DNA from: a virus
Virus record (IMG/VR): IMGVR_UViG_3300027917_000019
Location: 1-64,000 of that record
Reading direction: 5' to 3' (one strand)
DNA length: 64,000 nucleotides
The notes under the pieces: model-generated
Database searches by the model: none
What the model saw: only the letters and a program-made list of their open reading frames with translations
Told to the model about the DNA's origin: nothing
Part shown: positions 4,343 to 22,834 of the stretch, piece by piece
Layout of the letters: each line of letters opens with the position of its first letter
How positions within the stretch are numbered: the stretch's first letter is position 1
Program-made: the position numbers and the translations under genes

Positions 4343-4573
4343 TCATCCTCGATACTCATACCAGTCGCGTGCGCCCGTAGCTGATACTTTCACGTCCCAG
4401 AAGAATAGAACTAGGATATATATGACGTGAATCTCCCAGGACCTGATATCAGCGTAAAGCCTTCTTCGTTCTAGACCTTCTTCTAGGACTAGATTGTCCT
4501 TGAGAGCTTCTAGGTCTTGTTCTATCCAGTTTTCGTAGTAGGACTTATATTCGTAGTACTTATATTTAGACAT
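4343..4573 (-). CDS. small paralog-array protein (LVVE family)
   Basis: NLVLE..SWEIHV..FFWD. Confidence 0.85.
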   Translation of the reverse strand: MSKYKYYEYKSYYENWIEQDLEALKDNLVLEEGLERRRLYADIRSWEIHVIYILVLFFWDVKVSATGARDWYEYRG

Positions 4574-4584
4574 AGATTACGACA

Positions 4585-4797
4585 TCAGCGTTGGCTTAAG
4601 TAGTCTGGGACGTTGAAAGCGCCGTATGCGTTGACGTCCCAGAGGTACATAACTAAGAGCCATATAACACCTCTCTCAAAGTTCCCGACGTTACTTACAA
4701 GCCATGCTACTTGATTAGCCTCTACAACTAGTTGGCCTTCAATGGCATTAAGAGGGTGGTTTACCCAACCTTCGCAGTGGTACTCGTATTCAGTCAT
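4585..4797 (-). CDS. small paralog-array protein (LVVE family)
   Basis: QLVVE..NFERGV..YLWD. Confidence 0.85.
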   Translation of the reverse strand: MTEYEYHCEGWVNHPLNAIEGQLVVEANQVAWLVSNVGNFERGVIWLLVMYLWDVNAYGAFNVPDYLSQR

Positions 4798-5008
4798 TCT
4801 GATGATATTTCCAGTATTCGTCCAAAGTAACGTCTATATTTGCATTAAAGAGGTAGTAGATTAGAACGAGGAGTACGTGGAGTTCAAAGTTGTTAATATC
4901 ACTCGTAAGGAGTGCCCATTGACCAGGCTCTATTACTAGCTGTTTTTCAACGACTCTTACGTCGTCTCGTATCCAGCGTTGGTAATAAGGTTTGTATGTT
5001 AACGTCAT
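4790..5008 (-). CDS. small paralog-array protein (LVVE family)
   Basis: QLVIE..NFELHV..YYLFN. Confidence 0.85.
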   Translation of the reverse strand: MTLTYKPYYQRWIRDDVRVVEKQLVIEPGQWALLTSDINNFELHVLLVLIYYLFNANIDVTLDEYWKYHQND

Positions 5009-7646: not shown

Positions 7647-7892
7647 CTACAGAAACAACCACTTAAGTAGATAGTACACTACTTGTTGTTCACCGAGTTT
7701 CGCATGTTCTGTACAAACACCTAGTGTTTCTAAATCAACATGCTCTGCAACCAGCTTATCATCGTAAGCTTCTACTCGCTCTTTAAGCGTAAGCTTCCTA
7801 GCACGCCAGGTAGTAATCCAGTATGACAACGAGTCGTCGAGCAGCGCATGGAGAATGGTTTGGCCATGCTTAGTGACGATAACCTTACTCAT
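7647..7892 (-). CDS. small paralog-array protein (LVVE family)
   Basis: KLVAE..LGEQQV..KWLF. Confidence 0.8.
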   Translation of the reverse strand: MSKVIVTKHGQTILHALLDDSLSYWITTWRARKLTLKERVEAYDDKLVAEHVDLETLGVCTEHAKLGEQQVVYYLLKWLFL

Positions 7893-8097
7893 CTAAGCTC
7901 CACTCTAATATTTCCTGCAGCGCATATATCCACCGCTGATTAATGCACTCTTTTCCGTTCTCAAGCACCAAAAGATCATAGCCTTCTGTAACAAGCTGAT
8001 TTTCTACACGCACTACATTATCATGTAAATCTTGTGTGTAGTTAAGGGCCCATCGGGTCCAATAGCTTATCCATGCTAATCTAGGTTCCCTTTTCAC
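7885..8097 (-). CDS. small paralog-array protein (LVVE family)
   Basis: QLVTE..RWI..EWSL. Confidence 0.8.
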   Translation of the reverse strand: MKREPRLAWISYWTRWALNYTQDLHDNVVRVENQLVTEGYDLLVLENGKECINQRWIYALQEILEWSLDE

Positions 8098-8179: not shown

Positions 8180-8401
8180 TCATAGCTTGGTAGAAAGCCT
8201 GCGATTGATATTCAGTGCAACAATACCCTCCAACACTGCAACAGTCGCAGACTCATATTCCTCATGAACCTGATAGTTCGTCTTGTCATCGATAGCTACA
8301 AGACCAATCTTCCCGTTTTCCTTCTCGATGATGTGTAGTGTGAAACTAGAAAGTGTTTGGTCTTCGCGCTTCTCTTCAGACTTTGTCATAGTAGATTCCA
8401 T
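8180..8401 (-). CDS. hypothetical protein
   Basis: ORF co-oriented with and overlapping its upstream neighbour. Confidence 0.7.
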   Translation of the reverse strand: MESTMTKSEEKREDQTLSSFTLHIIEKENGKIGLVAIDDKTNYQVHEEYESATVAVLEGIVALNINRRLSTKL

Positions 8402-8595
8402 TCTCCGGCCTCCTCGTCGATGTATGGTCTAGTGTCCTTTGGAGGGACTTGAACCCATTTATATCCAAGCGCCGTTTTTTCAGTCTTGTGGTACGTAATA
8501 TTGAAAGTACTGGTGTTATAGTGATCAGGATTTCCCCAAGCTGCCGCGCTGTAATCAACACCGCCAATATAAAGGTCACTCACAACAAGCTCCAC
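8386..8595 (-). CDS. hypothetical protein with C-terminal EEAGEWNLL tail
   Basis: ORF; C-terminal motif shared with four other proteins. Confidence 0.75.
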   Translation of the reverse strand: MELVVSDLYIGGVDYSAAAWGNPDHYNTSTFNITYHKTEKTALGYKWVQVPPKDTRPYIDEEAGEWNLL

Positions 8596-8921
8596 TCTCC
8601 CTCTTCACTAGGGTCGTACAATTCAAGCTCTGTCAGGTCTACAAACGTAATAACCCCACGAGCTTCTACATTTACCCCAAAGTAGTTGCTGTCCACAGTA
8701 TATCCAGATCCATGGTCAGATACAGACGCTGTGTGCTTCTTAGCAACCAAGCGCTCTTCAGATTTCGTCCCATCCGGCCAGCGAACTTTTACTATCTGCC
8801 CCGCAATCAAGGTGATACCACGAGAACGAGACGCAGTACCTGCAGTTGATAGGCCCTCGCCGCTATAGGCGTAATAGATGTAGCCCCAATCATCGAACCT
8901 TTCAATCTTCCTATAACTCAC
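8580..8921 (-). CDS. hypothetical protein with C-terminal EEGEWSLL tail
   Basis: ORF; shared C-terminal motif. Confidence 0.8.
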   Translation of the reverse strand: MSYRKIERFDDWGYIYYAYSGEGLSTAGTASRSRGITLIAGQIVKVRWPDGTKSEERLVAKKHTASVSDHGSGYTVDSNYFGVNVEARGVITFVDLTELELYDPSEEGEWSLL

Positions 8922-8924
8922 ATG

Positions 8925-9182
8925 TCACCCACAGCCGGCGCCTGTCTGGCGAGGCTCCTCTTTCTCCTCGGACGGGTGGTCTACCGTAGCGCGTAATTCG
9001 TTGACAGCAGCAGTCAGGTCTTCAATCAGTACCTGTAAAATGACAAGGTCAGCCTTAACGTTGTTCAATTCGGCTCGCATGCACGTCAAGTCTAGTTGTG
9101 TAAAGTCCATCGCCCGCATCGTAAGCACCTTCCTGCACGTCGTCAAGAGGTTATGAAAGGGATCGTTTTGAAAACGAAGCAT
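8925..9182 (-). CDS. hypothetical coiled-coil protein
   Basis: Heptad Leu pattern; first gene of the leftward block. Confidence 0.65.
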   Translation of the reverse strand: MLRFQNDPFHNLLTTCRKVLTMRAMDFTQLDLTCMRAELNNVKADLVILQVLIEDLTAAVNELRATVDHPSEEKEEPRQTGAGCG

Positions 9183-9489
9183 TCAAGGTGTAAACTAACA
9201 TCAGAATAGACCCTTAAATAAGTACTTGTCTGTGAATAGATCACCATTTCTAGCTTGTTTTCACAAAACGAGGTGTTAGAATGGTGCTGAAGACTGCTCA
9301 GAATGGCCCTATTTGGTGTTGACAGGGGTTATGGTAGTGCTTATTTGGTACCTAACTAGGTATTACGAGTACGTGGAGAGATCCGGGCTGGTCTGACGGC
9401 CTGAAATTATGCCCCGTGGGTATACCTATCTTGTATGCGGGCCGTTGTCCGGACCAAAATAGGGACAGACTTTAAAAGAGGGACAGTAC

Positions 9490-9855
9490 ATGAGTGAGGA
9501 CCAAGACATTTGTCGAATAGTTCTACATCTGATTGAACCTGATGAAACGTTAGAGTTCGCGGTGGTTAGATCTGAAGTAGTACACTTTCTATCTGTGGTT
9601 AACAACCTGAACACAGTGTTCGTAAACATAAATGGAACAGGTATTCCAATCCGCCGCATCGCCTCCTATAATGAAGAAGACATGAACGGTGAGAGTGTTT
9701 ACAATAAGGCATTTATCTACACATCCCTGCCTATTCAAACAGTCGTACTTCCCCCAGCAACAGGATCCCCCCCATCGTTACCAAACGTCACAACAAGCGA
9801 GGACTGGTATCTGCACGCAGGTGACATAGGTCCCCTAAAGAAGGAAGGCTTCTGA
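9490..9855 (+). CDS. hypothetical protein
   Basis: ATG with GAGGGA RBS; distantly similar to the next ORF (LEFAVV..IASYNEEDMNG vs AEFEAV..VAVYSAEDMDG). Confidence 0.75.
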   Translation: MSEDQDICRIVLHLIEPDETLEFAVVRSEVVHFLSVVNNLNTVFVNINGTGIPIRRIASYNEEDMNGESVYNKAFIYTSLPIQTVVLPPATGSPPSLPNVTTSEDWYLHAGDIGPLKKEGF

Positions 9856-10157
9856 TGGCTATTCGAGCAACGACACATTCACCCCGTAGGACTAATAAGC
9901 CTACCTCTAAGGATGTCGATGTAGTAAAGATGATCGTAACTCTACACTCTGGTGCTGAGTTTGAGGCTGTCGGCGGCCGTGACGACGCTATTGATTTTCA
10001 CAGGCGTTTCAAAAAGTGGGTAGACGGTCAAGTTCACAAAACAGATAACCACAAGATTGTATTCTTTGGTGGTATTTACTTTGCCGCGAATGCTGTCGCT
10101 GTATATTCTGCTGAAGATATGGATGGGAAGAAGGTAGACCTTGGCCCCGCACATTGA
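9855..10157 (+). CDS. hypothetical protein
   Basis: TGATG coupling with the upstream gene. Confidence 0.75.
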   Translation: MAIRATTHSPRRTNKPTSKDVDVVKMIVTLHSGAEFEAVGGRDDAIDFHRRFKKWVDGQVHKTDNHKIVFFGGIYFAANAVAVYSAEDMDGKKVDLGPAH

Positions 10158-10548
10158 TGTGCCTGAAGGTAAAGACGTAATAGACGTTTTCCACAAGTGG
10201 CACGCAAAGCTTGACAGTGAAAACAGAGAGATAATCTTCTCTGTATCTACACAATATTATTTGGAAGAAGGACAGGCTGATCTTCTTGACCCAGAAGATG
10301 AGACGAAGTGGACCAAGGTTTTGGTACTACCTTTTCCTAAGGATAATGTTGTAACCGAGAAAGGTGAGATGTTAGTCGGCGCGTCTGTTCCTACTTTCTT
10401 TGACACAGAACAGCTCAAAAAACGGTTCATCCCTATAGACGACTTTGTACAAGTCGTCTATAAGATGGTTGAACAGATAAACGCCGATTTAGAAAACGCA
10501 ATGCTATTGCAGCAAATGGAAGATAACGCTGAGTGGAGTCTTCTGTAG
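10141..10548 (+). CDS. hypothetical protein with C-terminal EDNAEWSLL tail
   Basis: TTG start with GAAGG RBS; shared C-terminal motif. Confidence 0.75.
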   Translation: MAPHIDVPEGKDVIDVFHKWHAKLDSENREIIFSVSTQYYLEEGQADLLDPEDETKWTKVLVLPFPKDNVVTEKGEMLVGASVPTFFDTEQLKKRFIPIDDFVQVVYKMVEQINADLENAMLLQQMEDNAEWSLL

Positions 10549-10595
10549 TTATTTGTTAGGGGTTGACAAACAGAAATGTTTGACGTGGATACCTA

Positions 10596-11030
10596 ATGAT
10601 AATAGTCAATGATTTCATATTTATCAAAGTGTTTCCAGACTTATTCTGGGCACAGTGTGGAGATGGTTGGTTACTGCTTGGGGCTGAGTCATTAGCACAA
10701 GACCCCCACATCCTAGCAGCGGTGACGTATGATTCTGAAGTTAAAACAGGAAGGTTTGTACATCTGGTAAAGGCAGACATGCGTCTGAAGGCTGACAAGA
10801 TTTCTGGCGATGACGTGTACTATTCAACAGGTCAAACAAGCCCTCGTGCTCTTATGACAACATATCCAGACTTTGTGTACATAGTACAAGCCGATAACAG
10901 TGATGATCTAAAAGGGCACATTCTAGAACTACTATTCAGGAGTGATGTTCCTACTCCTAGTGTACCTTCTGAAAAAGTAGACCGTCGCCCAAGTTTTGAA
11001 GATCTTGAGGGAGATTGGTCCCTTCTGTGA
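10596..11030 (+). CDS. hypothetical protein with C-terminal EDLEGDWSLL tail
   Basis: ORF; shared C-terminal motif. Confidence 0.75.
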   Translation: MIIVNDFIFIKVFPDLFWAQCGDGWLLLGAESLAQDPHILAAVTYDSEVKTGRFVHLVKADMRLKADKISGDDVYYSTGQTSPRALMTTYPDFVYIVQADNSDDLKGHILELLFRSDVPTPSVPSEKVDRRPSFEDLEGDWSLL

Positions 11031-11556
11031 TCTTTCTTCACTTTCTTTCCTCACACCCATTGACAACCCTTGGTATTACCCCCAATTTAGATCAGACGGT
11101 TTAAGGGTAAGGCTTAATTCTCAGACTAAAGAGTTAGTAGTTATGTACGGTGAAGATATAGATGCTATTGACGTAGTAGACTGTGTATTCGAGTACTATG
11201 ATAAATACGGTAAGCGTATTACATTTGACGACCTAATAGAACTAGAAGACGACCAGAAATACGGTATAGTCGGTGTGTGGGTAAACTGGGTAGGAGAAGA
11301 AGTTATTACTACCACTTGGAATGGTGTACCTGTCTATCCTATAGAGGAGAAGGAAGGTCCTGACCCTCTCATCTTTGAGACTGTCTGTCATCGGGAAGAT
11401 CGGTACCGAAATATCATTCGTAGGTACTCTACACTGGATAGGGCTATAGAGGGGCATCGAACCGCTGTTTTGCAAGCAGGTGGTGATCCTGATTCAAATT
11501 ACGACAACATGCCTGACTGGATGCCTCCGTACTTCCTAGACTCGGATTTTTACTGA
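10996..11556 (+). CDS. hypothetical protein, WVxWxGE..EGH..GGDP family copy 1 (start uncertain)
   Basis: Motifs shared with the next two ORFs. Confidence 0.7.
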   Translation: MKILREIGPFCDLSSLSFLTPIDNPWYYPQFRSDGLRVRLNSQTKELVVMYGEDIDAIDVVDCVFEYYDKYGKRITFDDLIELEDDQKYGIVGVWVNWVGEEVITTTWNGVPVYPIEEKEGPDPLIFETVCHREDRYRNIIRRYSTLDRAIEGHRTAVLQAGGDPDSNYDNMPDWMPPYFLDSDFY

Positions 11557-11557
11557 G

Positions 11558-11833
11558 ATGACTAACACATATGTTGCTCCCTCAGGGTATATACTTGTAA
11601 AAGCTTGGGTAGACTGGCTTGGAGAGACTGTGGTTGAAACTTCAAGGGCACGTGAAAAAGGAAGGTATATTACGTTTGTGTCTACAAAGAACGGGCCGAT
11701 AGGCCCTGTTGCTTTCTATGACACGCTTGAAGACGCCGAAAAGGGGCATGACCTTGAAGTTAAATCTCATGGTGGTGACCCCGAAGGTTTTTACCCTCGT
11801 CCAGATTGGTATATCAAACGAGTGTGTGGGTGA
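11558..11833 (+). CDS. hypothetical protein, WVDWLGE family copy 2
   Basis: WVDWLGETVVET..GGDPEGFYPRPDWYIK. Confidence 0.8.
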   Translation: MTNTYVAPSGYILVKAWVDWLGETVVETSRAREKGRYITFVSTKNGPIGPVAFYDTLEDAEKGHDLEVKSHGGDPEGFYPRPDWYIKRVCG

Positions 11834-12191
11834 ACTAGTGCCTTATTTTGATATCAACACTCTAGATATTCATAAGGACTATCTGTCTCCTACAGGTTAC
11901 CAAGTTATAAACGTTTGGGTAGACTGGCTTGGAGAGACTGTAATTGAGACTGTCTTTGATAGTGCTTCGAATGCCAGGATTGAGTACACTTCTGAGTATA
12001 CTCCTACCTTGTTTTACACGTATGTGGCTACACATAAGGGGGCTATAACTTCTCTTAATGATTACTTGACTGTGCAGGAAGCTAAGGACGGGCATGTTGC
12101 TTTAGTTAGGGCTCATGGAGGCAATCCTGAAGGTTTTTACCCTCGTCCAGATTGGTACATCAAAAGTGTCGCTAACATCGTTCGTTTTTAA
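11826..12191 (+). CDS. hypothetical protein, WVDWLGE family copy 3
   Basis: WVDWLGETVIET..GGNPEGFYPRPDWYIK; start placed at GTG. Confidence 0.75.
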   Translation: MGELVPYFDINTLDIHKDYLSPTGYQVINVWVDWLGETVIETVFDSASNARIEYTSEYTPTLFYTYVATHKGAITSLNDYLTVQEAKDGHVALVRAHGGNPEGFYPRPDWYIKSVANIVRF

Positions 12192-12372
12192 GGGTTTGGT
12201 AATATTGCTGGTAGGTTGTGGCTCTACCATCACTATGACCCTTCCTAACTTGCAGAAGGGTACTTGTACTGGTGACGAGAATGTTCGCTACTGTGTTGAA
12301 GCAAATGGTACCTCTTGGTTGTGCACCCGCTCTGGTACGTGGTGGGAGTGTACGGTGACCCCTAATGACTAA
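12166..12372 (+). CDS. small Cys-rich putative lipoprotein
   Basis: LVILLVGC lipobox-like segment plus four further Cys. Confidence 0.55.
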   Translation: MSLTSFVFKGLVILLVGCGSTITMTLPNLQKGTCTGDENVRYCVEANGTSWLCTRSGTWWECTVTPND

Positions 12373-12601
12373 CGCGGAAATTCGTGAATGGTTTACGCCT
12401 GCAGAGGATTGTGTTCCTAACAGACATGCGGTCATCACTTATGAGACAGACTGCTGGTGTGTTCTAGTAGAAGAGTACATTGTTTCCACAAAGACTCCTC
12501 GGAAGATTGTACACAGTGCTCATGGGTATGGGTCAACCGTTTGGGAGGCACTAGTTAATGCTATAGCGGAGTGGGGCCGCACTAGGTGTGGTGCCATTTA
12601 G
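12365..12601 (+). CDS. hypothetical protein
   Basis: ORF overlapping the upstream stop, followed by a terminator. Confidence 0.7.
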   Translation: MTNAEIREWFTPAEDCVPNRHAVITYETDCWCVLVEEYIVSTKTPRKIVHSAHGYGSTVWEALVNAIAEWGRTRCGAI

Positions 12602-12619
12602 CTCAATGTTGTCAAAATA

Positions 12620-12641
12620 AAACCCCGCGCTTGCGGGGTTT
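12620..12641. terminator. intrinsic terminator
   Basis: AAACCCCGC-GCTT-GCGGGGTTT. Confidence 0.7.
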
Positions 12642-12951
12642 ACAAATTAAAGACACTGATTTGTGCGTTACGTGGTTTGTTATATATAAGAACTGCTTTG
12701 AACTATCTCAGATAGCTGGTGCTGCTAACAGATAGCTCGATATTTGAAAATTATCAATACACCTAATGCGACACATTCCGGGCTTGTGCTAGATTTATCG
12801 GTACCAGGGTTATACATGGTAGTTGCAACTATACGCTCCACAGAGCAGATAGTTGCAAATAATATTGTTTTTATTTAGTTATGTTTTTTCCACAATACCG
12901 TTATACCTTCGCTGCGCGTTGTTATGTACAATCTCTGTTATCAGGATAGGT

Positions 12952-12980
12952 TTGACAAGTGTGATGTTCTCAGTTACACT
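12952..12980 (+). promoter_or_regulatory. sigma70-type promoter
   Basis: TTGACA-17-TACACT just before GTG 12986 (leaderless-like). Confidence 0.65.
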
Positions 12981-12985
12981 AAAGT

Positions 12986-13657
12986 GTGTCCAGATGGTTG
13001 AATTTCTTAGGATTTCTGGTATTGGCCCTGTTTATCGAGGCATGCATACCAACATCCTTGAAACTAGATAGTGGTCCCATGCTGGTCCCTATAACGCAAG
13101 CAGGTTACCACTGGACTCCTGACCGCTTCCCTATTCCAGTATATGTACATCCGCAGATGGACCCTATCCGCAAGTTGGCTGTATTACTAGCCATAGACCA
13201 GTGGAACGAGTCTGTAGGTGGTGACGTGTTTGAGTACATAGACGCTCCTCCCAACTGGCCCATGTTTGAAGAGAACGGAGCGTTTACAGCATTGGGATTT
13301 GTTAGTGTGGAGGAAGGGCTTGTTGGTGTTGACCCAGATATGAACGTACAGCGTAATGCGTGGGCAGCTGTTTCTCTCAGACCTGGAAGGTACGAACTTC
13401 TAGGTGAGATTCATGGGGCTAGGGTTATGATTGGTACACACGTATCCGGTCTAGAAGACGCCGCTCGGATCACATTCCATGAGCTTGGGCACTGTTTAGG
13501 CTTGGCACATGATGGAAATGATCGTACAAGCATCATGTACTATAGCGCCACTCTTTCTATGAGTCAGCATCTACAGGAAGAGGATTTGGCCTATGTTAGA
13601 CAACAAGTGGGGACTTGGACTGCTGTCGAGGTCTTCCGTGAGTCACTCCAACTCTGA
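12986..13657 (+). CDS. matrixin (M10-like) zinc metalloprotease, putative lipoprotein
   Basis: HELGHCLGLAH zinc motif plus Met-turn SIMY; N-terminal hydrophobic segment ending IEAC. Confidence 0.9.
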   Translation: MSRWLNFLGFLVLALFIEACIPTSLKLDSGPMLVPITQAGYHWTPDRFPIPVYVHPQMDPIRKLAVLLAIDQWNESVGGDVFEYIDAPPNWPMFEENGAFTALGFVSVEEGLVGVDPDMNVQRNAWAAVSLRPGRYELLGEIHGARVMIGTHVSGLEDAARITFHELGHCLGLAHDGNDRTSIMYYSATLSMSQHLQEEDLAYVRQQVGTWTAVEVFRESLQL

Positions 13658-13853
13658 GTTATGGCATTTGCTGTTTGATCTTCAAATTCTCGTAAACGGG
13701 CATTGTGACGTTACAACTACTCCAGAATACGATGATGCAGTAGAAGCTTTTGATCCAGAACATGATGAAAGATACAGAGCGGCCATGTTGAAGGCTCGGG
13801 AGGCTTGTCCAGCAACGATTGACGATGAGGAGGGAGATTGGAGCCTCCTCTGA
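13638..13853 (+). CDS. hypothetical acidic protein with C-terminal DEEGDWSLL tail
   Basis: ORF; shared C-terminal motif; start placed at GTG. Confidence 0.7.
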   Translation: MSHSNSELWHLLFDLQILVNGHCDVTTTPEYDDAVEAFDPEHDERYRAAMLKAREACPATIDDEEGDWSLL

Positions 13854-22309: not shown

Positions 22310-22318
22310 GGGGACTTG

Positions 22319-22834
22319 ATGACTATTATTGTGCTAGACACAGATAAGACCTCAGTGGTGTTAGCTGCTGACCAAATGTGGGTTGAAGCTGAACTAATAA
22401 CCAAATATAGCTCCAAGCTCGTGCCCATCATGAGAGGTACTAGAGTAATTGGAATGATAGGGACTGCTGGCAGTGCTAGAAAAGGCATGCAGTTTGAGCA
22501 ACTAATCCTTTCTGAGTTCAGGAAGTCCACGGCTAGTGCTAATCCCTTGGAACTTTTGCGCACTGTTATAGACACTTCTTGGGAGGCTAAGAAGTGTCCG
22601 CAAGCAATTGTGGTCTTGCGGGGTGTGGGCTACGTTGTAGACGAAGACGGATTGGTAACTCAACAGGATAGGTTTGCAATAGGCACTGGAGCGCATATTG
22701 CTCTTGGTGCGATGTGGGGGCGCAAGGGGACGGCTGCCCGGCTCGCTAAATTTGGGTGTGAGGCTGCATGCGCGCTAATTACCAACTGTGGGGGTAAAAT
22801 AGACGTGTTTGAAATGCCTAGACAATCTTCTTGA
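22319..22834 (+). CDS. Ntn-hydrolase / proteasome-beta (HslV-like) peptidase
   Basis: Met-Thr N-terminus, LAAD, FAIGTGAHIALGAM, CGGKI. Confidence 0.7.
   Translation: MTIIVLDTDKTSVVLAADQMWVEAELITKYSSKLVPIMRGTRVIGMIGTAGSARKGMQFEQLILSEFRKSTASANPLELLRTVIDTSWEAKKCPQAIVVLRGVGYVVDEDGLVTQQDRFAIGTGAHIALGAMWGRKGTAARLAKFGCEAACALITNCGGKIDVFEMPRQSS

Follow-up and report, generated by a model that had tools for sequence, protein, structure and literature searches.

The first 64 kb of the 165,819-bp virus record IMGVR_UViG_3300027917_000019, an uncultured phage genome that CheckV rates as 98% complete, form the window analysed here (64,000 nucleotides). Between positions 8,386 and 13,853, five small open reading frames (ORFs), two on the minus strand and three on the plus strand, have products ending EWSLL, EWNLL, EWSLL, DWSLL and DWSLL, in the order of Table 1. 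An earlier note on this DNA had reported these five ORFs, their endings and the lack of any further resemblance between the proteins. The ORFs are present where it placed them, and all-against-all BLASTP of the five carriers aligns only the tails. Carriers are called unrelated here in the sense that sequence similarity is not detectable between their bodies, and the gene starts of several of them are uncertain.

The stop codon of 8386-8595 overlaps the ATG of the next gene (ATGA). The tail of 10141-10548 is alone among the tails in being closed by TAG. Read-through of this TAG (window 10546-10566) would add six residues before a TGA, burying the terminal peptide. Pfam and PHROGs searches gave no family matches for the five window carriers or for four carriers of a relative described below. 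Two carriers that are ORFans, without known relatives, returned self matches only from IMG/VR, as did one carrier searched against 5.8 billion proteins; the carrier at 10596-11030 has no relative among those 5.8 billion. An ESM Atlas search with the carriers at 8580-8921 and 10141-10548 found nothing above chance level, and nothing relevant to the pentapeptides themselves emerged from the literature.

Table 1. Tail carriers of the phage and two further genes considered in the text. Coordinates are those of the window unless marked as genome coordinates.
Feature	Coordinates	Strand	Length	C-terminus	Remarks
ORF	8580-8921	-	113 aa	..EEGEWSLL-stop (TGA)	No family match; stop overlaps possible GTG start of next gene
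ORF	8386-8595	-	65-69 aa	..AGEWNLL-stop	Start GTG 8595 or GTG 8583; no family match
ORF	10141-10548	+	135 aa	..NAEWSLL-stop (TAG)	No family match; no overlapping downstream gene
ORF	10596-11030	+	144 aa	..EGDWSLL-stop	Pro/Ser-rich linker before tail; TTGACA box 3', not a coupled gene
ORF	13593 or 13638-13853	+	71-86 aa	..EEGDWSLL-stop	Directly upstream of HAD phosphatase and ribonucleotide reductase genes
Primase-neighbour protein	genome 104584-105015		143 aa	..AEWDFD	Directly after primase; relaxed carrier
WGR-domain DNA-binding protein	genome 123641-123997		118 aa	..EDDWDVL	PF05406, E = 1.7e-14
Acidic peptide, little beyond tail	genome 125411-125518 (= L085:1411-1518)	+	35 codons	..SGEWDVL	
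ORFan	genome 149056-149436	-	126 aa	..GEWDLS	Relaxed carrier
HslV/proteasome-beta-like peptidase	22316-22834	+			phrog_1040, E = 6e-12; Thr directly after initiator Met; Pfam Proteasome below cut-off
AAA+ protein	genome 140147-142108 (= L085:16147-18108)	-	653 aa		One AAA domain (PF00004, residues 449-562); best PHROG 'ATP-dependent protease'

The earlier note had counted five carriers. In a scan of ORF endings across the genome (ORFs of at least 30 aa), these five are the only ones that end W-[SN]-L-L. The count is nevertheless too low, as a looser scan adds four carriers in other genome regions, all outside the window. At least nine otherwise unrelated proteins of the phage carry the tail. 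Seven are strict and two relaxed carriers, and they are 35 to 144 aa long and encoded on both strands in three genome regions. The tail reads [DE]-W-[S/N/D]-aliphatic-hydrophobic-COOH, and its Trp is always the fourth residue from the C-terminus.

The frequency of the tail is far above expectation. The pattern W[SN]LL-stop occurs 6 times in a six-frame count of the whole genome, against a mean of 0.33 and a maximum of 2 in 30 shuffles, and [DE]-W-x-hydrophobic-hydrophobic-stop occurs 11 times in six frames against 0.9 in shuffled sequence. For the 245 called proteins, 7 C-termini of the form [DE]W[SND]-hydrophobic-hydrophobic are seen where residue frequencies predict 0.0057. The core [DE]W[DSN]-hydrophobic is found 10 times within the last ten residues of these proteins, compared with 2 times in 50,162 internal positions. 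In 8 of the 10 C-terminal occurrences, and also in the 35-aa ORF, it starts exactly five residues from the end. A possible further case, 7885-8097 on the minus strand, ends ..EWSLDE and is doubtful; its core is one residue out of register and it was not counted. This ORF is the last member of a neighbouring array of small paralogues, and the EWSL lies inside the terminal helix of that family.

The shortest carrier consists of little else than the tail. The ATG of the 35-codon ORF overlaps the end of an upstream epimerase-like gene, behind a GGGAG box, and the ORF fills the gap to the next gene exactly. It is translationally coupled on both sides, and simple gene calls miss it. Of the carriers outside the window, the primase-neighbour protein is a member of a conserved alpha/beta family.

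Relatives were gathered around homologues of the neighbouring class II ribonucleotide reductase (RNR), giving 25 viral and 46 metagenomic loci. In the 951 kb of these loci the motif ends an ORF four times only, all in locus L008 of the relative L008/G001, where four consecutive ORFs end EWDLF, EWDII, EWDLV and EWDVL. They are immediately upstream of the HAD-RNR pair, which is the position of window ORF 13593-13853, and no homologue of any of the four was found in the study genome. The relative is otherwise syntenic, with the genes for the HAD phosphatase, RNR, exonuclease, Ro60-like protein, portal and capsid colinear at 30-78% identity. The comparison indicates that carrier bodies turn over at the HAD-RNR site while the tail persists. 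Three of the four G001 carriers are similar in length, with a weak match of 27% over 48 residues, and could be old tandem paralogues. The G001 tails are hardly acidic and have Lys or Arg adjoining the core, so the signal would reside in the Trp-x-aliphatic core rather than in charge.

Two carriers have orthologues that also keep the tail. When 1.84 billion representatives were scanned in full by HMMER with the WGR carrier as query, four small WGR proteins of 33-42% identity were found that end DWDVL, DWDLL, NWDVL and DWDLL, and a fifth that ends EWDIS; the metagenomic contigs encoding them reach 172 kb. Neither the Trp nor the Asp of the tail changes across their alignment, and the linker before it is full of indels and differs in length and sequence. 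For the primase-neighbour protein, two orthologues were found (75% and 53% identical to it), with the endings EWDL (141 aa, on a 573-nt contig) and EWDLF; here too the tail is kept and the linker varies. The earlier note would have given up its reading had the tail not been conserved at the C-termini of orthologues; it is conserved in both of these families and in the syntenic relative.

Other small WGR proteins from metagenomes (P0035, P0109, P0111, P0136, P0149, P0060 and P0093) form classes that differ in their conserved C-terminal peptide, R-F-S-D-I-L-E and R-S-I-L-V being examples. This suggests that a DNA-binding module with an exchangeable terminal peptide is a general design in the WGR family.

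WGR and primase-neighbour orthologues were sought in IMG/VR, cultured phages and GTDB, and no tailed locus was recovered. The exact DNA pattern for G-[DE]-W-S-L-L-stop has 10 single, unrelated matches in IMG/VR, one of them in a tail-fibre/endolysin-like prophage protein. The DNA pattern of the WGR-type tail gave four matches in GTDB, all in actinomycetes (three Streptomyces and one metagenome-assembled genome); these are internal because the pattern also admitted TGG, and they were discarded. Its one match in IMG/VR, also internal, is in a TGA-recoded phage and was likewise discarded. The phage of L089/L090 (IMGVR_UViG_3300028914_000034, 36.6 kb, with terminal repeats), which has 32% GC and is unrelated to the study phage, gives only short ORFs with the standard code and long ones, up to 1033 codons, when TGA is read as sense; it is a TGA-recoded phage.

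The tail is presented on segments that are predicted to be flexible. In an AlphaFold2 model of the WGR carrier, residues 6-86 have a predicted local distance difference test (pLDDT) score above 90, and residues 87-118 score below 50 and have no secondary structure. The model of the primase-neighbour protein is weak; in it the last 22 residues (122-143) are unstructured, and Foldseek with this model gave only generic Rossmann-like matches with E above 0.02. The remaining carriers have Pro/Ser/acidic linkers before the tail. Three features expected of a short linear motif are seen here: a disordered, accessible segment in the WGR and primase-neighbour models, a motif that is conserved in both alignments while the flanking linker varies, and recurrence on unrelated folds (a WGR domain, an alpha/beta protein and ORFans). 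The earlier note proposed that unrelated proteins share a linear motif as their last residues, and this is borne out by the signs of peptide-level selection on the tail and by its conservation in orthologues.

On this evidence the tail is probably a portable C-terminal docking motif that would be read by one receptor, a reading that rests on the exact terminal register, the disordered linkers, the conserved orthologues, the unrelated bodies and the depletion of the core at internal positions. A flexible and usually acidic linker would present the terminal peptide, whose Trp and last two, aliphatic residues would fit into a hydrophobic cleft on the common receptor. The free carboxylate and the adjoining acidic residue would add specificity. 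Diverse carriers would thereby be brought to one site, or compete for it.

The earlier note had suggested a clamp, RNA polymerase or a protease or adaptor as the hub. The single most likely candidate for this receptor, although a tentative one, is the host beta sliding clamp with its peptide-binding cleft, which is named for the likeness of the tail to clamp-binding motifs and because the tail-only 35-residue product would fit a competitor for a host cleft. The bacterial clamp-binding consensus is QL[SD]LF or QLxLxL, at or near the C-terminus, and phage Mu MuC and Mor use a clamp-binding motif on the host clamp, Mor having only DLF (PMC12867686). Like the tail, the beta-clamp motif is a pentapeptide that many unrelated proteins carry, often at or close to the C-terminus, and it is one that phage regulators exploit. 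The tail is class-compatible with it at all five positions. Position 3 is S, N or D in every copy, where the clamp motif has Ser or Asp, and 11 of 13 tails have L, I, V or F at positions 4-5, which are hydrophobic in the clamp motif. Unlike the clamp motif, the tail of the study phage is usually preceded by acidic residues.

In phage T4 the C-termini of gp43, gp33 and gp55 bind the gp45 clamp (reviewed in PMC2988020), which is a close parallel in that several unrelated phage proteins use a short hydrophobic/acidic C-terminal peptide to plug one ring-shaped hub. However, the motif sequence differs, and the study phage has no detectable gp45-, PCNA- or beta-type clamp: searches with PF09116, PF00705, PF00712 and PF02768 returned nothing from the 98%-complete genome, although very divergent clamps could escape such a search. 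The neighbouring small-paralogue array was also considered as the receptor and was rejected because it is absent from the tailed relative G001. After the host clamp and the phage replisome, the remaining probability falls to a receptor that has not been recognised.

Several observations weigh against a common docking motif, and against the host clamp as its partner. Two genomes with several tails were examined, the study phage and the relative L008/G001, and two relatives that are similarly close or closer by RNR (L036 and L058) have no such tail in the 10 kb upstream of RNR. The tails at 10996-11030 and 13819-13853 are a 35-nt direct repeat with 77% identity, and GGA accounts for 5 of the 6 Gly codons that precede the core, compared with 28% genome-wide; part of the similarity therefore reflects shared descent of a short cassette. 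As for the clamp, the Gln at position 1 that defines most of its motifs is lacking: all 13 tails, like the orthologues, have Asp, Glu or Asn there. The second residue of the tail, Leu in the clamp motif, is invariably Trp. With PolA, DnaB-like helicase, primase and SSB of its own, the phage has no detectable clamp, so a need of the replication module for a host clamp is not evident.

The question of how much of the likeness arises at the DNA level bears on the most sceptical explanation, that the similarity is a by-product of nucleotide signals or of a copied cassette and has no peptide function. Such signals are present. Glu-Trp (GAR TGG) always yields ATG or GTG 16 nt before the stop, and many tails end xTG TGA or xTA TGA, giving overlapping start-stop signals. 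Trp-Ser (TGG AGY) yields GGAG six bases upstream of the xTGA overlap start, and GGA-GAx is a Shine-Dalgarno-like string. An ATGA or GTGA overlap offers a possible start for the following gene in 6 of 13 tails (the nine here and the four of G001). TGA closes 8 of the 9 tails in the genome and 12 of all 13, compared with 54% genome-wide, and the excess of GGA and the 35-nt repeat point the same way. The bias in the stop and Gly codons is mild. However, 3 of the 5 window tails and the last G001 tail are followed by an intergenic TTGACA box and not by a coupled gene, and the residues are kept also at window 10996, where the next gene lies in a different frame. A Ser encoded by TCC, as in one tail, yields no GGAG, and the WGR-type tails have GAY instead. 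The earlier note had stated that the codons differ between copies, and this is correct: Ser is encoded by AGC, AGT or TCC, from both the AGY and the TCN families, Leu varies freely over five different codons, and the five core codons of the nine carriers have a mean nucleotide identity of 62% (range 47-80%). With the unrelated bodies, this codon variety argues that selection acts on the peptide. The peptide is also conserved in orthologues of other phages, compared at the protein level only, and coupling signals therefore cannot be the cause. The view of the earlier note that the tail is not merely a repeated DNA element thus stands for the tails as a group, with the exception of the one pair still recognisable as a repeat. 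From that pair, some tails were probably copied as a short 3' cassette, and the tail has probably spread in this way and then been kept by peptide selection. As the sole cause, nucleotide signals or cassette copying are already largely refuted and have next to no probability left. Hardly more probable is the suggestion that the carriers are very old paralogues of one family, in which the tail is the last surviving conserved segment and there is no common receptor. The neighbouring array does show that this phage retains extremely diverged tandem paralogues, and the similar lengths and weak match of three G001 carriers could be taken in the same way. Nevertheless, one carrier is a bona fide WGR domain protein, another belongs to the conserved family beside the primase and one has only 35 aa, and the range of lengths, the use of both strands and the spread over three genome regions fit a single family poorly. 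Retention of just the last five residues would itself call for a function.

If a receptor is involved, it could also be the phage's own replisome, on which the tail would dock its carriers as the acidic tails of T7 gp2.5 and gp4 bind T7 DNA polymerase. The T7 C-terminal tails are acidic and have a terminal aromatic or hydrophobic residue, and in these tails and the DDDIPF tip of SSB a flexible acidic segment ends in a terminal hydrophobic residue whose free carboxylate matters, as is proposed for the tail described here. The study phage encodes a family-A polymerase (PolA), a DnaB-like helicase, a primase, a gp32-like SSB, UvsX, SbcCD and a ligase, with no clamp detected, and so shares with T7 a clamp-less PolA replisome. 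Three carriers (the primase neighbour, the WGR protein and the 35-aa ORF) are in the replication module. Most carriers, however, are small ORFans in a region that resembles one for host takeover and not for replication, and the helicase, primase and SSB of the phage lack the tail. The invariant element is the Trp four from the end, and charge is dispensable in the relative, where Lys or Arg stands beside the core. The replisome is for these reasons considered an unlikely receptor. An involvement in proteolysis is judged improbable to the same extent. Here the tail would be a degron that shortens the life of its carriers through a host or phage AAA+ protease, or an HslU-like docking or activating peptide for the HslV-like peptidase of the phage (Table 1), which is the candidate receptor in that case. 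Non-polar C-termini are classical degrons, and the phage encodes both this peptidase, with its Thr after the initiator Met, and a 653-aa AAA+ protein. Phages carry proteasome homologues of unknown role (PMC8665760), and the free octapeptide EDLSRFIL from the C-terminus of HslU activates HslV (PMC4106860, PMC6429459). The octapeptide has the same acidic-aromatic-aliphatic-Leu-COOH layout as the tail and is active by itself, and the study phage has an HslV-like protein with no evident HslU partner. The register differs, however: the key aromatic residue of HslU is third from the end and is followed by two aliphatics, whereas the Trp of the tail is fourth and the third-from-last residue is S, N or D. 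Co-occurrence gives no support. The HslV-like gene, which directly follows the exonuclease gene, has homologues at the same position in L036 and L044, where the fetched loci have no tails. It was not found in the syntenic slot of the tailed L008/G001, nor in the 45.9 kb (27% complete) available for G001. All of these records are partial, so this evidence is weak. A tail on a DNA-binding WGR protein across distant phages, and an ORF that is little but tail, also fit a degron poorly.

The docking-motif reading can be extended to a dedicated recruitment system, in which a single receptor outside the known peptide-binding hubs would recognise the tail on early proteins and replication proteins, the set of which changes. 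The 35-residue product would then act as a competitor or timer, and the tail of 10141-10548 could be masked by its six-residue amber extension. This version is speculative and more probably wrong than right. The 'undescribed addressing system' of the earlier note is possible. The general principle is already known from the T4 clamp tails, the T7 acidic tails, the SSB tip and the beta-clamp motif on Mu MuC. No description was found of the motif itself or of the tail-only ORF, nor of the way in which the motif extends across both early ORFans and replication proteins and is conserved in two families of orthologues.

Other features were noted at these loci. In the 653-aa AAA+ protein, the 380-residue N-terminal region has no recognised fold, and there is a Lys/Ala-rich repeat near the start. 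Three adjoining paralogous ORFs at window 10996-12191 (plus strand) are 32-47% identical and have no family match; they have in common a W-V-D-W-L-G-E segment and the end G-G-[DN]-P-E-G-F-Y-P-R-P-D-W-Y. The 223-aa product of window 12986-13657 (plus strand) has a lipoprotein-like signal, whose lipobox Cys falls at about residue 20, together with an HExxH zinc-peptidase motif of the matrixin type (PF00413, E = 4e-6), and is conserved in the relatives L036 and L058.

These two relatives carry different small-protein families at the site upstream of RNR. Where the study phage has its tailed ORFs and small-paralogue array, they have tandem arrays of other small paralogues that contain Cys and end in conserved helices (L036:3478-5934, minus strand; L058:5378-6373, plus strand). 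Two L058 proteins, 4526-4966 and 9705-9911, are alike at their ends only (BLASTP E = 0.05), with an acidic run followed by L-[LM]-L-L-G-x-x, and this may be another flavour of tail, with two instances only.

Small early proteins of phages are mostly ORFans without a handle, and a shared terminal peptide offers one. A single synthetic peptide could pull down the common partner, and in doing so would show the target of at least nine proteins of unknown function. The partner would reveal a host or phage hub that is worth targeting for this lineage. Should it be the host sliding clamp, many phage proteins would be competing for the replication hub; should it be the proteasome-like peptidase, the tails would be the first ligands for that enigmatic family.

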